A DNA stretch of 63,950 nt, filler included, from Candidatus Rokuibacteriota bacterium (GTDB taxonomy: Bacteria; JAUVQV01; DATDCY01): assembly GCA_031406795.1 (NCBI GenBank). It is 9 parts of 9 records of this genome, joined end to end, with 100 filler letters (N's around TTAATTAATTAA, not from the genome) between each part and the next. Parts side by side here need not be neighbours in the genome. Positions count along the whole stretch, not along the records: positions 1 to 17,482 come from JANOHV010000203.1; 8 more parts are not named here. The stretch is one strand, 5' to 3'. The notes under the pieces are model-generated. The model worked only from the letters and a program-made list of their open reading frames with translations. It was not told the DNA's origin and searched no databases. Each line of letters starts with the position of its first letter. Positions within the stretch are counted from its first letter, which is position 1. The position numbers and the translations under genes are program-made. Below, in pieces: positions 8,668-61,634 of the stretch.

Positions 8668-8790
8668 TCTGAACGTAGTGTCGAACCGCGGGCGCGCTTG
8701 CCTGTCCGCCTTCTCCTTGAACTTCTGCCTACTCTGTCACGCCAGGGCAGAAATGCAAGCGAGATCTGTCGGCTACAACGCCTTGGGCGG
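8668..8790 (-). repeat. attC site
   Basis: GCCCAA-GGCGTTGTAGCCGAC...GCAAGCGCGCCCGCGGTTCGACACTAC-GTTCAGA; R''/spacer shortened by about 3 nt. Confidence 0.82.
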
Positions 8791-9404: not shown

Positions 9405-9440
9405 ACCGAGTGGACCGAGGGCCGTTAACCGGACCCGGCT
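9405..9440 (-). mobile_element. group II intron domain VI remnant
   Basis: Near-identical to the 3' end of the intron at 10910-10945 (GCCGGG.CCGGTTAACGGCCCTCGG.C.ACTCGGT). Confidence 0.8.
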
Positions 9441-9444
9441 ACGC

Positions 9445-9659
9445 GTCGAAGATGCAACCTCAACCGCGGCACGCAGCCTCGATTGCAGCGATGTCGATCT
9501 TTTTCATCTGGGTTCTCTGTCGGGCTTCATTTCCATCTTCCCGCTGGTCCTCACTCACTGGGTAACGTTAGCCAATTTGCCGGGCTCAACGCCCGTTCCC
9601 ATGGCCTCGGACTTACTTGGCGCTGAAGCGTGATCGGTCAGCTACAACGCCTGGTTGCT
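9445..9659 (-). repeat. degenerate, elongated attC site
   Basis: GAGCAAC-CAGGC-GTTGTAGCTGAC left arm is intact; right arm is degenerate. Confidence 0.6.
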
Positions 9660-9922
9660 CATTCGTAATGCGTCCACATTCGAATGACCTTGACGACCTT
9701 CTCATTATCGAATACTTGATACACCAATCGGTTATGGATATTGATTCTCCGTGAGTAGGCTCCGTCCAGATCGCCAATCAACTTTTCATACGGTGGAGGA
9801 TTGATGTAGGGATTCTGTTTGAGGAGTTCAATCAATACCTCAGCCTTGGGTCTCAGACCTGATGACGATATTTTCTTTGCATCCTTTTGTGCTTGTTTCG
9901 TGAAGACGACTTGCCATTTCAC
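9659..9922 (-). CDS. Txe/YoeB family toxin (cassette)
   Basis: GTG start; PP.YEKL.GDL.GAYSRRINI..RLVY, MWTHYE. Confidence 0.92.
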   Translation of the reverse strand: MKWQVVFTKQAQKDAKKISSSGLRPKAEVLIELLKQNPYINPPPYEKLIGDLDGAYSRRINIHNRLVYQVFDNEKVVKVIRMWTHYE

Positions 9923-10167: not shown

Positions 10168-10244
10168 TCCTTCCCGAAGTTGTTTCAGGAATGGTACGCA
10201 TTGTCGTACGCACTGTCAAATTGCTTTCTAGCATTCCTTTTCCA

Positions 10245-10375
10245 ACCACGTAGCGTTTAGCCGCGGCCGCGCTTGCCTGCCCGTATTGGAACATTGCAGC
10301 CAGAATTCACCTTAGCCTCAAAGGGCAGAAATGCAAGCGTGATCCGTCGGCTACAACGCCTTATAAGGGTTAGGT
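10245..10375 (-). repeat. attC site with expanded R''-L'' spacer
   Basis: ACCTAAC-CCTTATAAGGC-GTTGTAGCCGAC...GCGGCTAAACGCTAC-GT. Confidence 0.85.
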
Positions 10376-10514
10376 GCTCACTGCGACATCGTGAGCCGAA
10401 ATCAAGCCGCATGGGAACTCGCAACGAGGAGTGAAGCACCGAAAAGGCGAAATTTGAAGAGTTCGTCAGCGGCTATTTCTGGCCTTGACGTGGGGAGACC
10501 ATATAAGGGTTAGG
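10362..10514. repeat. 140-bp hairpin element between direct repeats, copy 1
   Basis: TATAAGGGTTAGG at 10362 and 10502; interior differs from copy 2 at only 3 positions; imperfect inverted repeat. Confidence 0.85.
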
Positions 10515-10519
10515 CAAGT

Positions 10520-10894: not shown

Positions 10895-10909
10895 TGTGGT
10901 TTTCTCTGC

Positions 10910-13121
10910 ACCGAGTAGGCCGAGGGCCGTTAACCGGCCCCGGCCCCTCTCAGAACCGTACGTGACAGTTTCCCGTCATACGGCTCAAGCACTTCGTAAG
11001 GGCTCTGTCGATGAAGAGAGACCCGGCAATTCCGTGAGTCCCGCATTTTCAGATCGTACAGCCGGCCTGGAGCGGATGCAACCGCGCCCAGCCGCGAGCG
11101 GCCCGAGTGCGGAAGTATTCGTCCTGGCCGTGATCGTAGGGATTTGTTTCTCCCCGGATCTTCACGTGCCGGATGATGCGTACGCTTCCGGCGCGCAGCA
11201 GATCCACGATCTTTCTTTGCCCCAAGTTTCCTTTGACGGTCGCGAAGAATTGCCATAGGGTGGTGGTCGTTGATCGGAAGTAGTGCTTCCGGGTCCACCG
11301 CTTGCCTTTGGCCGTGTGCCTTCTTCGCGCCCATCGCCAGAGTTGCCAGAAGATGCAGGAATCGACTTTGGTAAAGGCGGCCGAGGAACAGACGTGCCGG
11401 TGATAGTTCGCCCAGCCCTGGACCACGGGATTGAGCTTGCCGATCATGACTGCAGTCTGCGCTCCTCGGTGGGCTCGAATGATTTCCTTGGTCTTGGCGA
11501 CGATCGCCAGCACTGCGGTCTTGGCGGGCTGGATCAGCAGCTTGCCGCCGTACTTTCGCAGGTTCTGGCCGAGAAAATCGAACCCCTGCTCGATCGGCGT
11601 GATGCGTGTCTTCTCCTCGGAGAGGGTCAGCCCTCGTTCTCGGAGAAACGCCGCGACTGCGGGGAGAACCCTGTCCCGGAGCAGTTCTTGCGAGCCGCCC
11701 GTGATGACAAAGTCGTCCGCATAGCGGATCACGTTGACCTTGGTACGCCTCGGGACGGCCTTTCTCACTGCCGTCTCCAGGCCATCCAGAGTCATGTTCG
11801 CCAGCACGGGGGAAATGATGCCCCCTTGCGGGGTCCCGGCCAGCGTCGAGTAGAGCATGCCTTTGTCCAGGTACCCGGCCCGCAACCATTGTCCGAGAAC
11901 CTTCGCGTCCATCGGGATATGGCGCAGCAGCCAGGCGTGATTGATCTCATCGAAGCAGGAACGGATGTCCCCCTCCAGTACCCAACGCGGCGAGCACTTC
12001 TTGGCCAGACAAATGAAGCACTGTGCGATTGCGTCGGCGCAGCCGCGGTACTCCCGAAATCCGTAGGAGTTCGGGTCCCCCATCGTCTCGGCCACCGGAG
12101 TCAGCGCCAGCGCGTAGAGCGCCTGCATTGCCCGGTCTCGCATCGTTGGAATTCCCAGAGGTCGGAGTTTACCGTTCTTCTTCTCGATGTAGACCCGTCT
12201 CAGCGGCAGGGAACGATACCCGTGCCGTCTGAGCGTGTTGATCGCCTGCATCTTTTTGCGCGACGTGTTCCAAACTTTCCGGTCCACGCCCGGGGTCCTG
12301 CGGCCTTTGTTGCTCACGACTCGTTTCACCGCCAACAACTTTGCGTGATACGAGTGGGTCAGAAGCCACATCAGGGCTTTCACCTTGGCGTGTCTTCGTT
12401 CCCGAACTGCCTTTGCGATACGCACCTGCAGTCTTCTGACAGCGTGACGTACCGGACCCCAGGAAATGGCGTCCCAGTCCGTGCGGCTGTCGGAGAGCGC
12501 ACCAGTCGACCGTCTCGCGGCCACCGTCATTTGCATTCTCTCCCCCGAAGATTCCCCAGATTCTCCCGCAAAGAAGCACCAGATGGACGTCAGCGTATCC
12601 CGACGATTACCGCCGGGCCTTGGCTTCTTCCATCCTCTCTCTCCCGACCTTCGTCAGCCTGCCTTACGGTTGGCCTGCCCAATGTTGCCGGGCGAAGGAC
12701 CGGGAGTTACCACGTTCCGCTTACCTGACAACAGATCACGTAGGCCCACTCTGTCCACCGGCGGGAATGTCGTCCGCGTCGGACCACGTTAGAGAGGTCC
12801 GATCCACCTGCGCACCTTTTGGTCCAAGCCGGTCAGCCCTTCGGCTTGTTCGCTATAACAGCGGTTACGAGTGTTCACCTGGGTTGGCCCTATGACCTTA
12901 TCCTAACCCCTCACCCGGATCGGGCTTCCAGGAGGGCGTCGGCCTCGCGGCTCTTGCCCCGCATCTCGCAGGATGCTTCGGCGCATTGCGGAGAGGCTCC
13001 ATACCCGCTCGGGATGCACCCGAGCACGCATGCTCCCCTTGGATCGCGGCAACGGAATGCCGGGTTCAAGCGGCCCTCCTGCACCGTTGAACAGTCTTGT
13101 GTAAGCGACCTCGTGTCGCAA
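10910..13121 (-). mobile_element. group II intron (IIB, chloroplast-like CL1 type) inserted in attC R' box
   Basis: 5' TTGCGACACGAGGTCG; 34-nt domain V GAGCCGTATGACGGGAAACTGTCACGTACGGTTC (10953-10986); domain VI; removing it restores GTTCG|GCAG. Confidence 0.92.
11049..12536 (-). CDS. ltrA: group II intron reverse transcriptase/maturase, no HNH endonuclease domain
   Basis: RVT_N (V.RLQ.RIAKA), TPGVD, RPLGIPT..DRA.Q, GTPQGG.ISP.LAN, RYADD, domain X GWANY; ends after the R...I.G..NPYD motif. Confidence 0.95.
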   Translation of the reverse strand: MQMTVAARRSTGALSDSRTDWDAISWGPVRHAVRRLQVRIAKAVRERRHAKVKALMWLLTHSYHAKLLAVKRVVSNKGRRTPGVDRKVWNTSRKKMQAINTLRRHGYRSLPLRRVYIEKKNGKLRPLGIPTMRDRAMQALYALALTPVAETMGDPNSYGFREYRGCADAIAQCFICLAKKCSPRWVLEGDIRSCFDEINHAWLLRHIPMDAKVLGQWLRAGYLDKGMLYSTLAGTPQGGIISPVLANMTLDGLETAVRKAVPRRTKVNVIRYADDFVITGGSQELLRDRVLPAVAAFLRERGLTLSEEKTRITPIEQGFDFLGQNLRKYGGKLLIQPAKTAVLAIVAKTKEIIRAHRGAQTAVMIGKLNPVVQGWANYHRHVCSSAAFTKVDSCIFWQLWRWARRRHTAKGKRWTRKHYFRSTTTTLWQFFATVKGNLGQRKIVDLLRAGSVRIIRHVKIRGETNPYDHGQDEYFRTRAARGWARLHPLQAGCTI

Positions 13122-13253
13122 CGAACGTAGCGTTTAGCCGCGGGCGCGCTTGCCGGCCCGTATCGGCACGTTACAATTCTCCTGAGCATCAGCCTCAAAG
13201 GGCCGAAATGCAAGCGTGATCCGTCGGCTACAACGCCTCTATAAGGGTTAGGC
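13122..13253 (-). repeat. attC site with expanded spacer
   Basis: GCCTAAC-CCTTATAGAGGC-GTTGTAGCCGAC...GCGGCTAAACGCTAC-GTTCG. Confidence 0.88.
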
Positions 13254-13681: not shown

Positions 13682-13800
13682 GCCTAACGTAACGTTTAGC
13701 CGCAGGCGCGCTTGCCTGCCCGTATTTGCACATTACACTGTTCACTACACTCACACTCAAAGGGCAGAAATGCAAGCGTGACTGTCGGCTAGAACGTCTT
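13682..13800 (-). repeat. attC site interrupted by IS110-family element
   Basis: Same attC family with R' GTTAGGC intact; the R'' end is replaced by the IS. Confidence 0.85.
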
Positions 13801-13872
13801 GATACTCATTAAGGCCTCCGGGGAAGCGCCACGTCGGTACCATTGGTGAAACCACCGGAGAGGAGGCCTTGA

Positions 13873-16247: not shown

Positions 16248-16380
16248 ATCGAACGTAGCGTTTAGCCGCGGGCGCGCTTGCCTGCCCGTATTTGCATAGT
16301 TGCCCTCGAACTCGACTCTAAACGCAAAGGGAAGAAATGCAAGCGTGACTGTCGGCTACAACGCCTTATAAGTGTTTCGT
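16248..16380 (-). repeat. attC site with expanded spacer
   Basis: ACGAAAC-ACTTATAAGGC-GTTGTAGCCGAC...GCGGCTAAACGCTAC-GTTCGAT. Confidence 0.88.
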
Positions 16381-16720: not shown

Positions 16721-16847
16721 GCCGAACGTTGCGTTTAGCTGCCGGCGCGCTTGCGGGCGCCTTGGAACGTGCCTTCGCCTCTGCTCATTGAACGGTAGCC
16801 CTCTTGCAAGCGTGACGGTCGGCTACAACGCCTTATAAGGGTTGGGA
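16721..16847 (-). repeat. attC site with expanded spacer
   Basis: TCCCAAC-CCTTATAAGGC-GTTGTAGCCGAC...GCAGCTAAACGCAAC-GTTCGGC. Confidence 0.88.
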
Positions 16848-17238: not shown

Positions 17239-17482
17239 ACCGGGTAGCCGGGGGGCGTTGCCGCCCCCAAGCCCCCTCAGAACCGTACTTGAGAGTTTCC
17301 CCTCATACGGCACAAGCACTTCATAAGCCTCCTTCGTAGGAAGTAGTATCCGTGTCGGGCCATGTTGGAGAGGCCCGAACCACCCGCTTACCTTTTGGTC
17401 GACGCCTGTCAGCCCTATTTGGCGGAGTCGCTTTAACGGCGGTTGCAAGTGTTTACCTTAAGTTGGCCATATGATCTTATCC
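17239..17482 (-). mobile_element. ORF-less, internally deleted group II intron derivative (5' part cut by contig end)
   Basis: 17350-17482 is homologous to 12775-12903 (domain I) and is fused almost directly to domains V-VI. Confidence 0.85.
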
Positions 17483-17582
17483 NNNNNNNNNNNNNNNNNN
17501 NNNNNNNNNNNNNNNNNNNNNNNNNNTTAATTAATTAANNNNNNNNNNNNNNNNNNNNNNNNNNNNNNNNNNNNNNNNNNNN
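17483..17582. other. artificial contig linker (also 19855-19954, 25859-25958, 37956-38055, 46915-47014, 50459-50558, 54898-54997, 61535-61634)
   Basis: N44-TTAATTAATTAA-N44, with stops in all frames. Confidence 0.99.
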
Positions 17583-19854: not shown

Positions 19855-19955
19855 NNNNNNNNNNNNNNNNNNNNNNNNNNNNNNNNNNNNNNNNNNNNTT
19901 AATTAATTAANNNNNNNNNNNNNNNNNNNNNNNNNNNNNNNNNNNNNNNNNNNNT

Positions 19956-25858: not shown

Positions 25859-25958
25859 NNNNNNNNNNNNNNNNNNNNNNNNNNNNNNNNNNNNNNNNNN
25901 NNTTAATTAATTAANNNNNNNNNNNNNNNNNNNNNNNNNNNNNNNNNNNNNNNNNNNN

Positions 25959-37955: not shown

Positions 37956-38055
37956 NNNNNNNNNNNNNNNNNNNNNNNNNNNNNNNNNNNNNNNNNNNNT
38001 TAATTAATTAANNNNNNNNNNNNNNNNNNNNNNNNNNNNNNNNNNNNNNNNNNNN

Positions 38056-46914: not shown

Positions 46915-47014
46915 NNNNNNNNNNNNNNNNNNNNNNNNNNNNNNNNNNNNNNNNNNNNTTAATTAATTAANNNNNNNNNNNNNNNNNNNNNNNNNNNNNN
47001 NNNNNNNNNNNNNN

Positions 47015-50458: not shown

Positions 50459-50558
50459 NNNNNNNNNNNNNNNNNNNNNNNNNNNNNNNNNNNNNNNNNN
50501 NNTTAATTAATTAANNNNNNNNNNNNNNNNNNNNNNNNNNNNNNNNNNNNNNNNNNNN

Positions 50559-54627: not shown

Positions 54628-54997
54628 CAGTCCCTCCCAGTGAAATAGAGCTTTCCCAATTAAAACTTTTTCTATCATGAATGAGTGCGAATAATCACCA
54701 TCTATCTTCGACTCCCTGAAATCCGCAGCGCAGATCCCCGATCCGCGCGTACGCGCGGATCCAGCAGCAGAGGAAGCATTTCAACCGCCGAAAAAGCCGG
54801 ACTTATTGCAGGAAGCACGGCGTGGCAGAGGGCAAGCATCGCTTGAAGCAGGCATTGCGATCAGATATGAGCAACGACTTGGATAAACCGGACCAGGNNN
54901 NNNNNNNNNNNNNNNNNNNNNNNNNNNNNNNNNNNNNNNNNTTAATTAATTAANNNNNNNNNNNNNNNNNNNNNNNNNNNNNNNNNNNNNNNNNNNN

Positions 54998-61534: not shown

Positions 61535-61634
61535 NNNNNNNNNNNNNNNNNNNNNNNNNNNNNNNNNNNNNNNNNNNNTTAATTAATTAANNNNNNNNNN
61601 NNNNNNNNNNNNNNNNNNNNNNNNNNNNNNNNNN

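Follow-up and report, generated by a model that had tools for sequence, protein, structure and literature searches.

The association of group II introns with integrons is known mainly from the group IIC-attC introns (S.ma.I2 and relatives; PMC3001079, PMC4424553), which are endonuclease-less group II introns that exploit the repeated attC sites of cassette arrays. As they are portrayed in PMC3001079, these introns belong to class C, insert into the bottom strand antisense to the cassettes, have no exon-binding site 2 (EBS2) and use the attC hairpin in place of the terminator motif; they also block transcription from the cassette promoter Pc and supply an outward promoter. In a review of 2015, class C is the only class for which attC specificity is given (PMC4424553), and a sense-oriented intron in a class 1 integron of Enterobacter cloacae, as it is cited in a passage of PMC7923331, is likewise of class C and not of the IIB kind with a chloroplast-like 1 (CL1) reverse transcriptase (RT). 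The only report found to link IIB introns with integrons is that of UHB.I2, an intron on a metagenomic contig of soda-lake origin (Sonbol and Siam, 2021, Mob DNA 12:8; PMC7923331). Here, we describe a IIB intron of 2,212 nt that occupies the right-hand core box (R') of an attC-type repeat in a cassette array of a Candidatus Rokuibacteriota bacterium (assembly GCA_031406795.1). The DNA analysed, referred to as the window, is a stretch of 63,950 nt, filler included, and the coordinates of its features are collected in Table 1.

By its published description, UHB.I2 resembles the intron of the window in its IIB1 ribozyme, its endonuclease-less CL1 RT, its ends (5'-UUGCG..GU-3'), its orientation with the cassettes, its place directly after an attC and the presence of toxin-antitoxin cassettes (PMC7923331). 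It differs in being a single copy located 'just downstream' of attC, with flanking exons that are poorly conserved among its homologues, whereas in the window the insertion is mapped inside R' (GTTCG/GC; here and below a slash within a sequence marks the insertion point), EBS1 is complementary to R', three insertions share one register and relatives behave alike, although the supplementary figures of that report may already show the position of UHB.I2 (PMC7923331). The comparison is one of descriptions, since the contig of UHB.I2, LFIK01005957, is not among the 80 metagenome loci considered below. The expected EBS3 bulge is described as absent from UHB.I2 (PMC7923331). Further IIB1 introns with CL1 RTs are T.el4h (Th.e.I3) and EcI5, which share with the intron of the window the domain I layout of EBS2 (a candidate in the window) and EBS1 and recognise their DNA targets by pairing of EBS with intron-binding sites (IBS) of the exon (PMC8643678). 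These introns home into single-copy gene sites, whereas the one described here targets a repeated recombination core and has a pyrimidine as first and a G as penultimate base. The possibility raised in a preliminary description of this DNA, that such an intron might be undescribed, can thus not be upheld, because UHB.I2 has the same ends, class and orientation (PMC7923331). The observation itself is confirmed, and the intron is a well-resolved member of a barely described kind that has been reported once before for this class. What the present case adds is the logic by which EBS1 matches R', the fixed register across three insertions and the recurrence across RT subclades. Resolved to the base, the arrangement is the opposite, brought about by a IIB/CL1 intron, of the one that has been reviewed (class C, bottom strand, blocking of cassette transcription; PMC4424553, PMC3001079).

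The window consists of contigs of a metagenome-assembled genome that are concatenated through N44-TTAATTAATTAA-N44 linkers at eight places, and adjacency across these linkers is not real. Its first contig (1-17482) carries a minus-strand cassette array from about 7900 to the contig end, in which one repeat family is present in eight copies between 7900 and 17482, each behind short co-oriented minus-strand open reading frames (ORFs). The consensus of attC sites is RYYYAAC at the left and GTTRRRY at the right end, with a length of about 55-140 nt. In the array, the left ends are of the RYYYAAC type (GCCTAAC, ACCTAAC, TCCCAAC, GAGCAAC) and the right ends of the GTTRRRY type (GTTAGGC, GTTCGGC, GTTCGAT), while the inner L''/L' stem joins GTT-G-TAGCCGAC and GGCTA-AAC with a single bulged base (GTT-G-TAGCC pairs with GGCTA-AAC), and L' and R' are separated by a 5-nt spacer, GCTAC. 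The repeats of the host thus have the left end, the right end, the stem with an extrahelical base and the length of attC sites. The ORFs encode products that are typical of cassettes, i.e., Phd/YefM with YoeB/ParE, a PemK/MazF toxin, DUF1622 and a beta-carbonic anhydrase. On these features the repeats can be read as attC sites. Rfam gave no match on them, and a first attC scan based on a regular expression and energy recovered none of the real sites.

The full-length intron is delimited by Rfam matches to group-II-D1D4-7 (12907-13064, 65.8 bits) and to domain V/VI (RF00029; 10910-10988, 63.6 bits), by a 5' junction ...GGCTAAACGCTACGTTCG/TTGCGAC and by a 3' junction ...CCTACTCGGT/GCAGAGAAAACCACAATG (in a longer reading, ...CTACTCGGT/GCAGAGAAAACCACAATG). 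Rejoining of the exons gives GTTCGGCAGAGAAA, which is nearly identical to GTTCGGCAGAAAGAG, the R' and cassette start of the uninterrupted attC A at 16727, and the intron boundaries are therefore fixed to the base. The intron splits the R' of attC D as GTTCG/intron/GC, i.e., 5 nt into R' and 4 nt past the G/TT crossover, in sense with the cassettes. With the intron removed, attC D has a predicted fold in which CTGCC-AAC pairs with GTT-GGCAG. An insertion exactly 5 nt into R', co-oriented with the cassette genes and rejoining to a normal cassette start, had been proposed before, and both the junctions and the uninterrupted attC A agree with it.

Class assignment draws on the ribozyme and on the protein that it encodes. 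Domain V is 34 nt long with an AGC triad; a bulged A is located in domain VI, 7 nt from the intron's 3' end. The intron protein, an intact RT/maturase with RT0-7 and X (thumb) domains, matches the Pfam families RVT_N (3.7e-28), RVT_1 (1.2e-39) and GIIM (7.5e-23) only, and no HNH family was found in its 495 residues by Pfam at E <= 0.001; its C-terminus extends 75 residues past GIIM and 16 past the end of the alignment with T.el4h. Compared with solved structures, it scores 543.8 bits against the T.el4h RT (6me0_C; residues 5-479), 129.8 against LtrA (IIA) and 124 and 109 against two IIC RTs; this reference set covers CL1, IIA and IIC, and the preference for CL1 over classes CL2, B, D, E and F is read from an identity of about 55% only. 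By tblastn, RTs of plasmid group II introns are 52.8-55.8% identical to it (25 among the matches listed), and its closest homologue is 92% identical and of equal length. Together, these features support a IIB ribozyme with an RT of the CL1 lineage that lacks an endonuclease domain. This is the class given in the preliminary description; a grouping of the RT with class C, which would have spoken against that description, is not indicated by the scores.

The ends of the intron, UUGCG...GU, deviate from the consensus 5' GUGYG ... AY 3', as had been noticed earlier and as can be read at both junctions. In group II introns the first and the penultimate base interact. T.el4h and EcI5 have canonical ends, GUGYG...AY. 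Among 57 introns of the family in which both ends were mapped, all 42 with G or A as the first base have a penultimate A (GUGCG or AUGCG with ...AC or ...AU), and all 15 with a pyrimidine as the first base have a penultimate G (UUGCG, UCGCG, CCGCG or CUGCG with ...GU or ...GC). Because the two positions covary without exception, UUGCG...GU is a compensated variant and not a sign of decay. Moreover, such strict pairing in 57 introns constitutes a useful natural data set on the selection of the 3' splice site.

For the analysis of target recognition, 82 related loci were collected (80 metagenome loci at 52-62% RT identity and two distant loci on genome contigs, L001 and L002), the intron ends were mapped by iterated nhmmer, and domain I was aligned for the 69 introns that have at least 20 nt of 5' flank. 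EBS1 is the seven-base loop of a conserved hairpin, and in 65 introns it forms on average 4.89 of 6 pairs with positions -1 to -6 of its own exon, as compared with a mean of 2.06 when the exons are shuffled among introns (the largest of 1000 shuffles reached 2.52). An upstream variable block corresponds to EBS2 and makes on average 4.45 pairs with exon positions -13 to -8 versus 2.05 after shuffling (65 introns). Both blocks thus covary with the 5' exon in these 65 introns. The EBS1 of the full-length intron is perfectly complementary to CGTTAG/G, which is the R' consensus and the complement of the R'' of its own attC (CTGCCTAAC versus GTTAGGCAG). The EBS1 loops of the full-length intron, the second copy and the relatives together support targeting of the R' core by base pairing. 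Pairing of an intron stretch near 12905, GGGGTTAGG, with R'' CCTAACCC across the hairpin was also considered and was dropped, since the alignment of the 69 introns puts EBS2 elsewhere.

The insertions in the array number three and differ in age, a single one being intact and the other two decayed, and all three end in ...CGGT before a cassette start and therefore share one register. The two further 3' ends, at 9405 and 17239, had been pointed out in the preliminary description; the latter belongs to an internally deleted copy that is cut by the contig end, the former to a remnant of 35 nt. In the second copy, Rfam detects domain V/VI (17239-17315, 56.7 bits). This copy aligns to positions 219-349 (78%) and 2122-2212 (84%) of the full copy, and since only these parts match, the region from the end of domain I to domain IV is missing from it; the contig stops before its 5' part is reached. 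Its EBS1 loop reads UCCAACA (17369-17363), and EBS1 CCAAC predicts an exon ending in GTTGG. Together with GAGC, its 3' exon, it yields GTTGGGAGC, which is complementary in all 9 positions to the R'' GCTCCCAAC of the cassette that the second copy heads. It had been claimed that the bases behind the two further 3' ends (GCGG and GAGC) complete the complement of the cassette's own R''. This is true of the second copy and is read from 4 nt only at 9405; in the full copy, the matching R'' (CTGCCTAAC) is that of the attC in which it sits and not that of the downstream cassette.

Contigs from public sequencing data were examined, covering three DNA runs from sediment and one RNA run; absence from such contigs proves nothing. 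Contigs of 257 nt from two of the DNA runs (22 differences) span 12897-13153 and bridge a 5' junction with the exon GTTGG/ (place 13123); they stop where the array contig begins and may be the missing 5' part of the second copy. In the RNA library, a contig of 421 nt with 25 differences spans the 5' junction and has the same GTTCG exon as the window; it could represent precursor RNA or carry-over of DNA. Other contigs of the RNA run agree with attC as far as GTT (13124) and differ beyond it, which is what a cassette boundary would produce. No contig of the three DNA runs and the RNA run joins 13122 to 10909, whether as an empty site or as spliced RNA, with the limit that holds for absence in contigs. 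One contig of run X3, from a related copy, joins 11081 to 12959; the 1,877 nt missing in between extend from domain I to where the RT ORF ends, so that this deletion derivative, as is the case for the second copy, has no ORF.

Insertion into R'-like boxes is not confined to the window. In 10 of the 69 introns (that of the window and those of L006, L007, L008, L016, L018, L019, L022, L027 and L079), the insertion point lies 3 to 6 nt inside a GTT box that matches the intron's own EBS1 (e.g., UCUAAC with GTTAGA, AACGGG with CCCGTT), and the rejoined exons yield R'-like heptamers such as GTTGGAA, GTTGGTC, GTTAGCC, GTTAGAT and GTTAGGC. An upstream xxxxAAC together with a spanning hairpin of 58-134 nt accompanies 7 of these 10 introns, as against 71 of 600 control GTT sites. 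In L022 the flank is repeated twice more downstream within the locus, and in several relatives an ORF begins 9-25 nt behind the intron. The other 59 introns lie at other sites.

In a tree built from 94 RT rows by quick search (support by the Shimodaira-Hasegawa-like approximate likelihood ratio test, SH-aLRT, only), the intron of the window groups with its 11 closest proteins (support 100), and this group is nested in a clade of 21 rows (87) with L003-L009, L012 and L024. Other GTT-box cases fall in three or four further places of the tree, and at least four state changes are needed among 62 rows (L019 is not mapped). The separate attC-parasitic lineage that had been suggested does not emerge, since introns with R'-box targets occur in several RT subclades, interspersed with relatives that have other home sites; judged from tree and flanks, R'-box homing is a recurrent habit within the family and not the mark of one exclusive lineage.

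We consider it very probable that retrohoming placed a mobile IIB/CL1 intron without endonuclease on the coding (top) strand of one attC in a cassette array. Recognition would follow the ordinary IIB mode: EBS1 CUAACG would pair with the final spacer base between L' and R' and with the first five bases of R' (CGTTAG, here CGTTCG), which would bring the intron in after the fifth base of GTTRRRY, and pairing of a second loop, UAGCG, with the adjoining upstream part of the spacer is probable. Because R' is the sole sequence common to all cassettes, one such intron would find many targets per array. Lying 4 nt 3' of the G/TT crossover, the intron is part of the downstream cassette and should move with it on excision by IntI, so that IntI would mobilise intron and cassette together; as had been suggested earlier, the intron may also influence excision by IntI. 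The sense orientation would in principle permit splicing from the array transcript, which would restore GTTCG/GCAG in vivo. By analogy with other endonuclease-less introns, priming would probably occur at the replication fork, and the intron is presumably active at present.

A broader proposal is more tentative, and on balance we would expect it to fail somewhat sooner than to hold. It states that homing into the top-strand R' of attC is a strategy reached repeatedly by CL1/IIB1 introns through an EBS1 tuned to GTTRR, that insertion just 3' of G/TT makes the intron the 5' end of a mobile cassette, which integron recombination would spread while splicing would spare the transcript, and that such introns might form a second class of integron parasites with a distinct mechanism, widespread among bacteria of sediment and groundwater. 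The logic of recognition, an EBS1 complementary to the R' core, is apparent from the sequence, and relatives from unrelated metagenomes show the same. If general, it would mean that a second kind of retroelement lives in integron arrays, one that does not silence the downstream cassettes and is moved by IntI as part of a cassette. Furthermore, CL1/IIB1 introns such as EcI5 are already programmable tools for gene targeting, and a natural variant directed at the attC core could help to mark cassette arrays in laboratory strains.

Several observations weigh against retrohoming into an integron attC, or against its generality. The IntI gene is not visible on the array contig, whose upstream end, at 17482, lies within the array, so the array could be a cluster of attC sites lacking an integrase (CALIN) instead of an integron. 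At the site itself, the EBS1 of the full-length intron has a U.C mismatch at exon position -2, the candidate EBS2 makes 2 of 6 pairs in the register of the family and 5 of 5 only when shifted by 2 nt, and the equal or better targets in attC B and attC C remain empty. Among the relatives, the 59 introns outside GTT boxes home into conserved genes, domain VI of other introns and RT ORFs, and the ten GTT-box cases are not independent, the RTs of L016 and L018 being identical. The hairpin test is crude, and a stricter detector was not discriminating and missed the attC sites of the array itself. Within the clade of 21 rows, the flank is known for seven, of which four lie in GTT boxes and three (L003, L004 and L009) do not; the 11 closest RTs (74-92% identity) are known without flanks, and the metagenome loci included none of them.

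An alternative is that an ordinary site-specific CL1 homing intron has specialised on the spacer and R' of the repeat family of this host, and not on attC as such. In its favour, the spacer CGCTA with which the candidate EBS2 pairs is specific to this host, the relatives switch freely to targets in genes, in domain VI of other introns and in RT ORFs, and R'-box targeting requires the at least four state changes mentioned above. Such a specialist is nevertheless unlikely, as L006, L008, L016, L022, L027 and L079 also lie in GTT boxes with a matching EBS1 despite unrelated spacers and hairpins, and as the GTTAG core read by EBS1 is the attC consensus; the difference from retrohoming into attC sites is, moreover, one of degree. 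If the repeats themselves were non-integron interspersed hairpins, of the repetitive extragenic palindromic (REP) type or recognised by another recombinase, the unseen integrase on a contig that ends at 17482 and the unusual spacing of 11 nt between R'' and L'' in five repeats would find an explanation. This has a very low probability in our estimate, given eight repeats that each follow short co-oriented ORFs, including toxin-antitoxin pairs, the RYYYAAC-type left and GTTRRRY-type right ends with an L''/L' stem containing one bulged base, and RNA contigs that are common up to GTT (13124) and divergent beyond. Membership in the known group IIC-attC introns draws its sole support from the location in an attC and has practically no chance against an RT that scores 543.8 bits to a CL1 RT versus 124 and 109 to IIC RTs, a 34-nt domain V with AGC, the candidate EBS2 and an insertion in the top strand, whereas IIC-attC introns are described from the bottom strand (PMC3001079). 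Retrohoming of a IIB/CL1 intron into an attC's top strand therefore remains the preferred reading.

Table 1. Features of the intron-bearing cassette array and linkers of the window (positions in the whole stretch; a slash marks an intron-exon junction or insertion point).
Feature	Position	Strand	Details
Full-length group II intron, 2,212 nt	10910..13121	-	5' UUGCG ... GU 3'; Rfam matches, junctions, comparison with attC A, EBS1-IBS1 pairing
Domain V, 34 nt, AGC triad	10953..10986	-	RF00029 alignment and direct count; domain VI continues to 10910
RT/maturase ORF, 495 aa	11049..12536	-	YADD, no endonuclease domain; Pfam
EBS1 CUAACG	12787..12792	-	In loop of hairpin CGGACC with GGUCCG; pairs 5/6 with exon CGUUCG (-6..-1)
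Candidate EBS2 UAGCG	12851..12855	-	Tentative; pairs 5/5 with exon CGCUA (-11..-7: last L' base and L'-R' spacer)
attC D, 5' part	13122..13253	-	Repeat mapping; R'' GCCTAAC (13253-13247), L'' GTTGTAGCCGAC, L' GGCTAAAC, spacer GCTAC, R' bases 1-5 GTTCG (13126-13122)
attC D, final two R' bases	10908..10909	-	GC, with which the 3' exon begins; cf. GTTCGGC in attC A
Second intron copy	17239..17482	-	Cut by contig end, internally deleted; 3' end ...CCCGGT/GAGC
Third intron copy	9405..9439	-	Last 35 nt of domain VI only; 32/35 identical to full copy; 3' end ...CTCGGT/GCGG; copy followed by cassette start GCGGAAAAGAATG
attC A, uninterrupted	16721..16847	-	R'' TCCCAAC, R' GTTCGGC; belongs to cassette starting behind second intron copy
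attC B, uninterrupted	16248..16380	-	...CGCTACGTTCG/A (16248-16259); IBS1 and IBS2 identical to occupied site, yet empty
attC C, uninterrupted	13682..13815	-	R' GTTAGGC; CGTTAG/G (13682-13693) perfect for EBS1, yet empty
attC E	10240..10375	-	R'' ACCTAAC; R' region GCTACGTGGTTGGAA
attC F	9562..9660	-	R'' GAGCAAC ... GGCTAACGTTAC; R' missing; followed by ~120 nt and the 35-nt intron remnant
attC G	8668..8790	-	CCGCCCAAG ... GTTCAGA; ends MazF-type toxin-antitoxin cassette that starts behind third remnant
ORF of intron-bearing cassette, 124 aa	10520..10894	-	ATG 16 nt after intron; no Pfam family
Linkers	17483-17582, 19855-19954, 25859-25958, 37956-38055, 46915-47014, 50459-50558, 54898-54997, 61535-61634		N44-TTAATTAATTAA-N44

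Some repeats of the array show irregularities of their own. In attC E, three extra bases lie between spacer and R' (10240-10262; GCTACGTGGTTGGAA versus GCTACGTTCGGC in other attC sites). An orphan attC left end, GCCTAACCCTTATA, is located at 10502-10515 (minus strand), directly behind the stop codon of the ORF of the intron-bearing cassette; its right half is absent, and the complete attC E follows 126 nt farther downstream. The sequence of about 120 nt that separates attC F from the intron remnant of 35 nt (9440-9561, minus strand) has no match in the full intron. Concerning abundance, the attC repeat at 13136-13222 reaches a summed contig depth of up to 1082 in the sediment DNA runs and of 639 in the RNA run, versus about 10 in its flanks, and the attC family of the array seems to be abundant in the communities sampled.

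Other locations were seen among the relatives. L010, with EBS1 UCCUAAC, was considered as a further R'-targeting intron and was dropped, its 3' flank being a CRISPR-like repeat array: a 27-28-nt repeat, GTTCACCGCCGTGCAGGCGGCTTAGAA, is found three times at L010:2290-2450, separated by spacers of about 32 nt, and the intron may lie inside this array. Nested introns occur as well, in which a different group II intron is interrupted within its domain VI, immediately after domain V, by a member of the family (L020:197 and 2598, L035:2382, L059:1008, L063:987, L075:714 and L033:2467), and the introns of L029 and L069 are inserted in the FDFLG-coding motif of an RT ORF.

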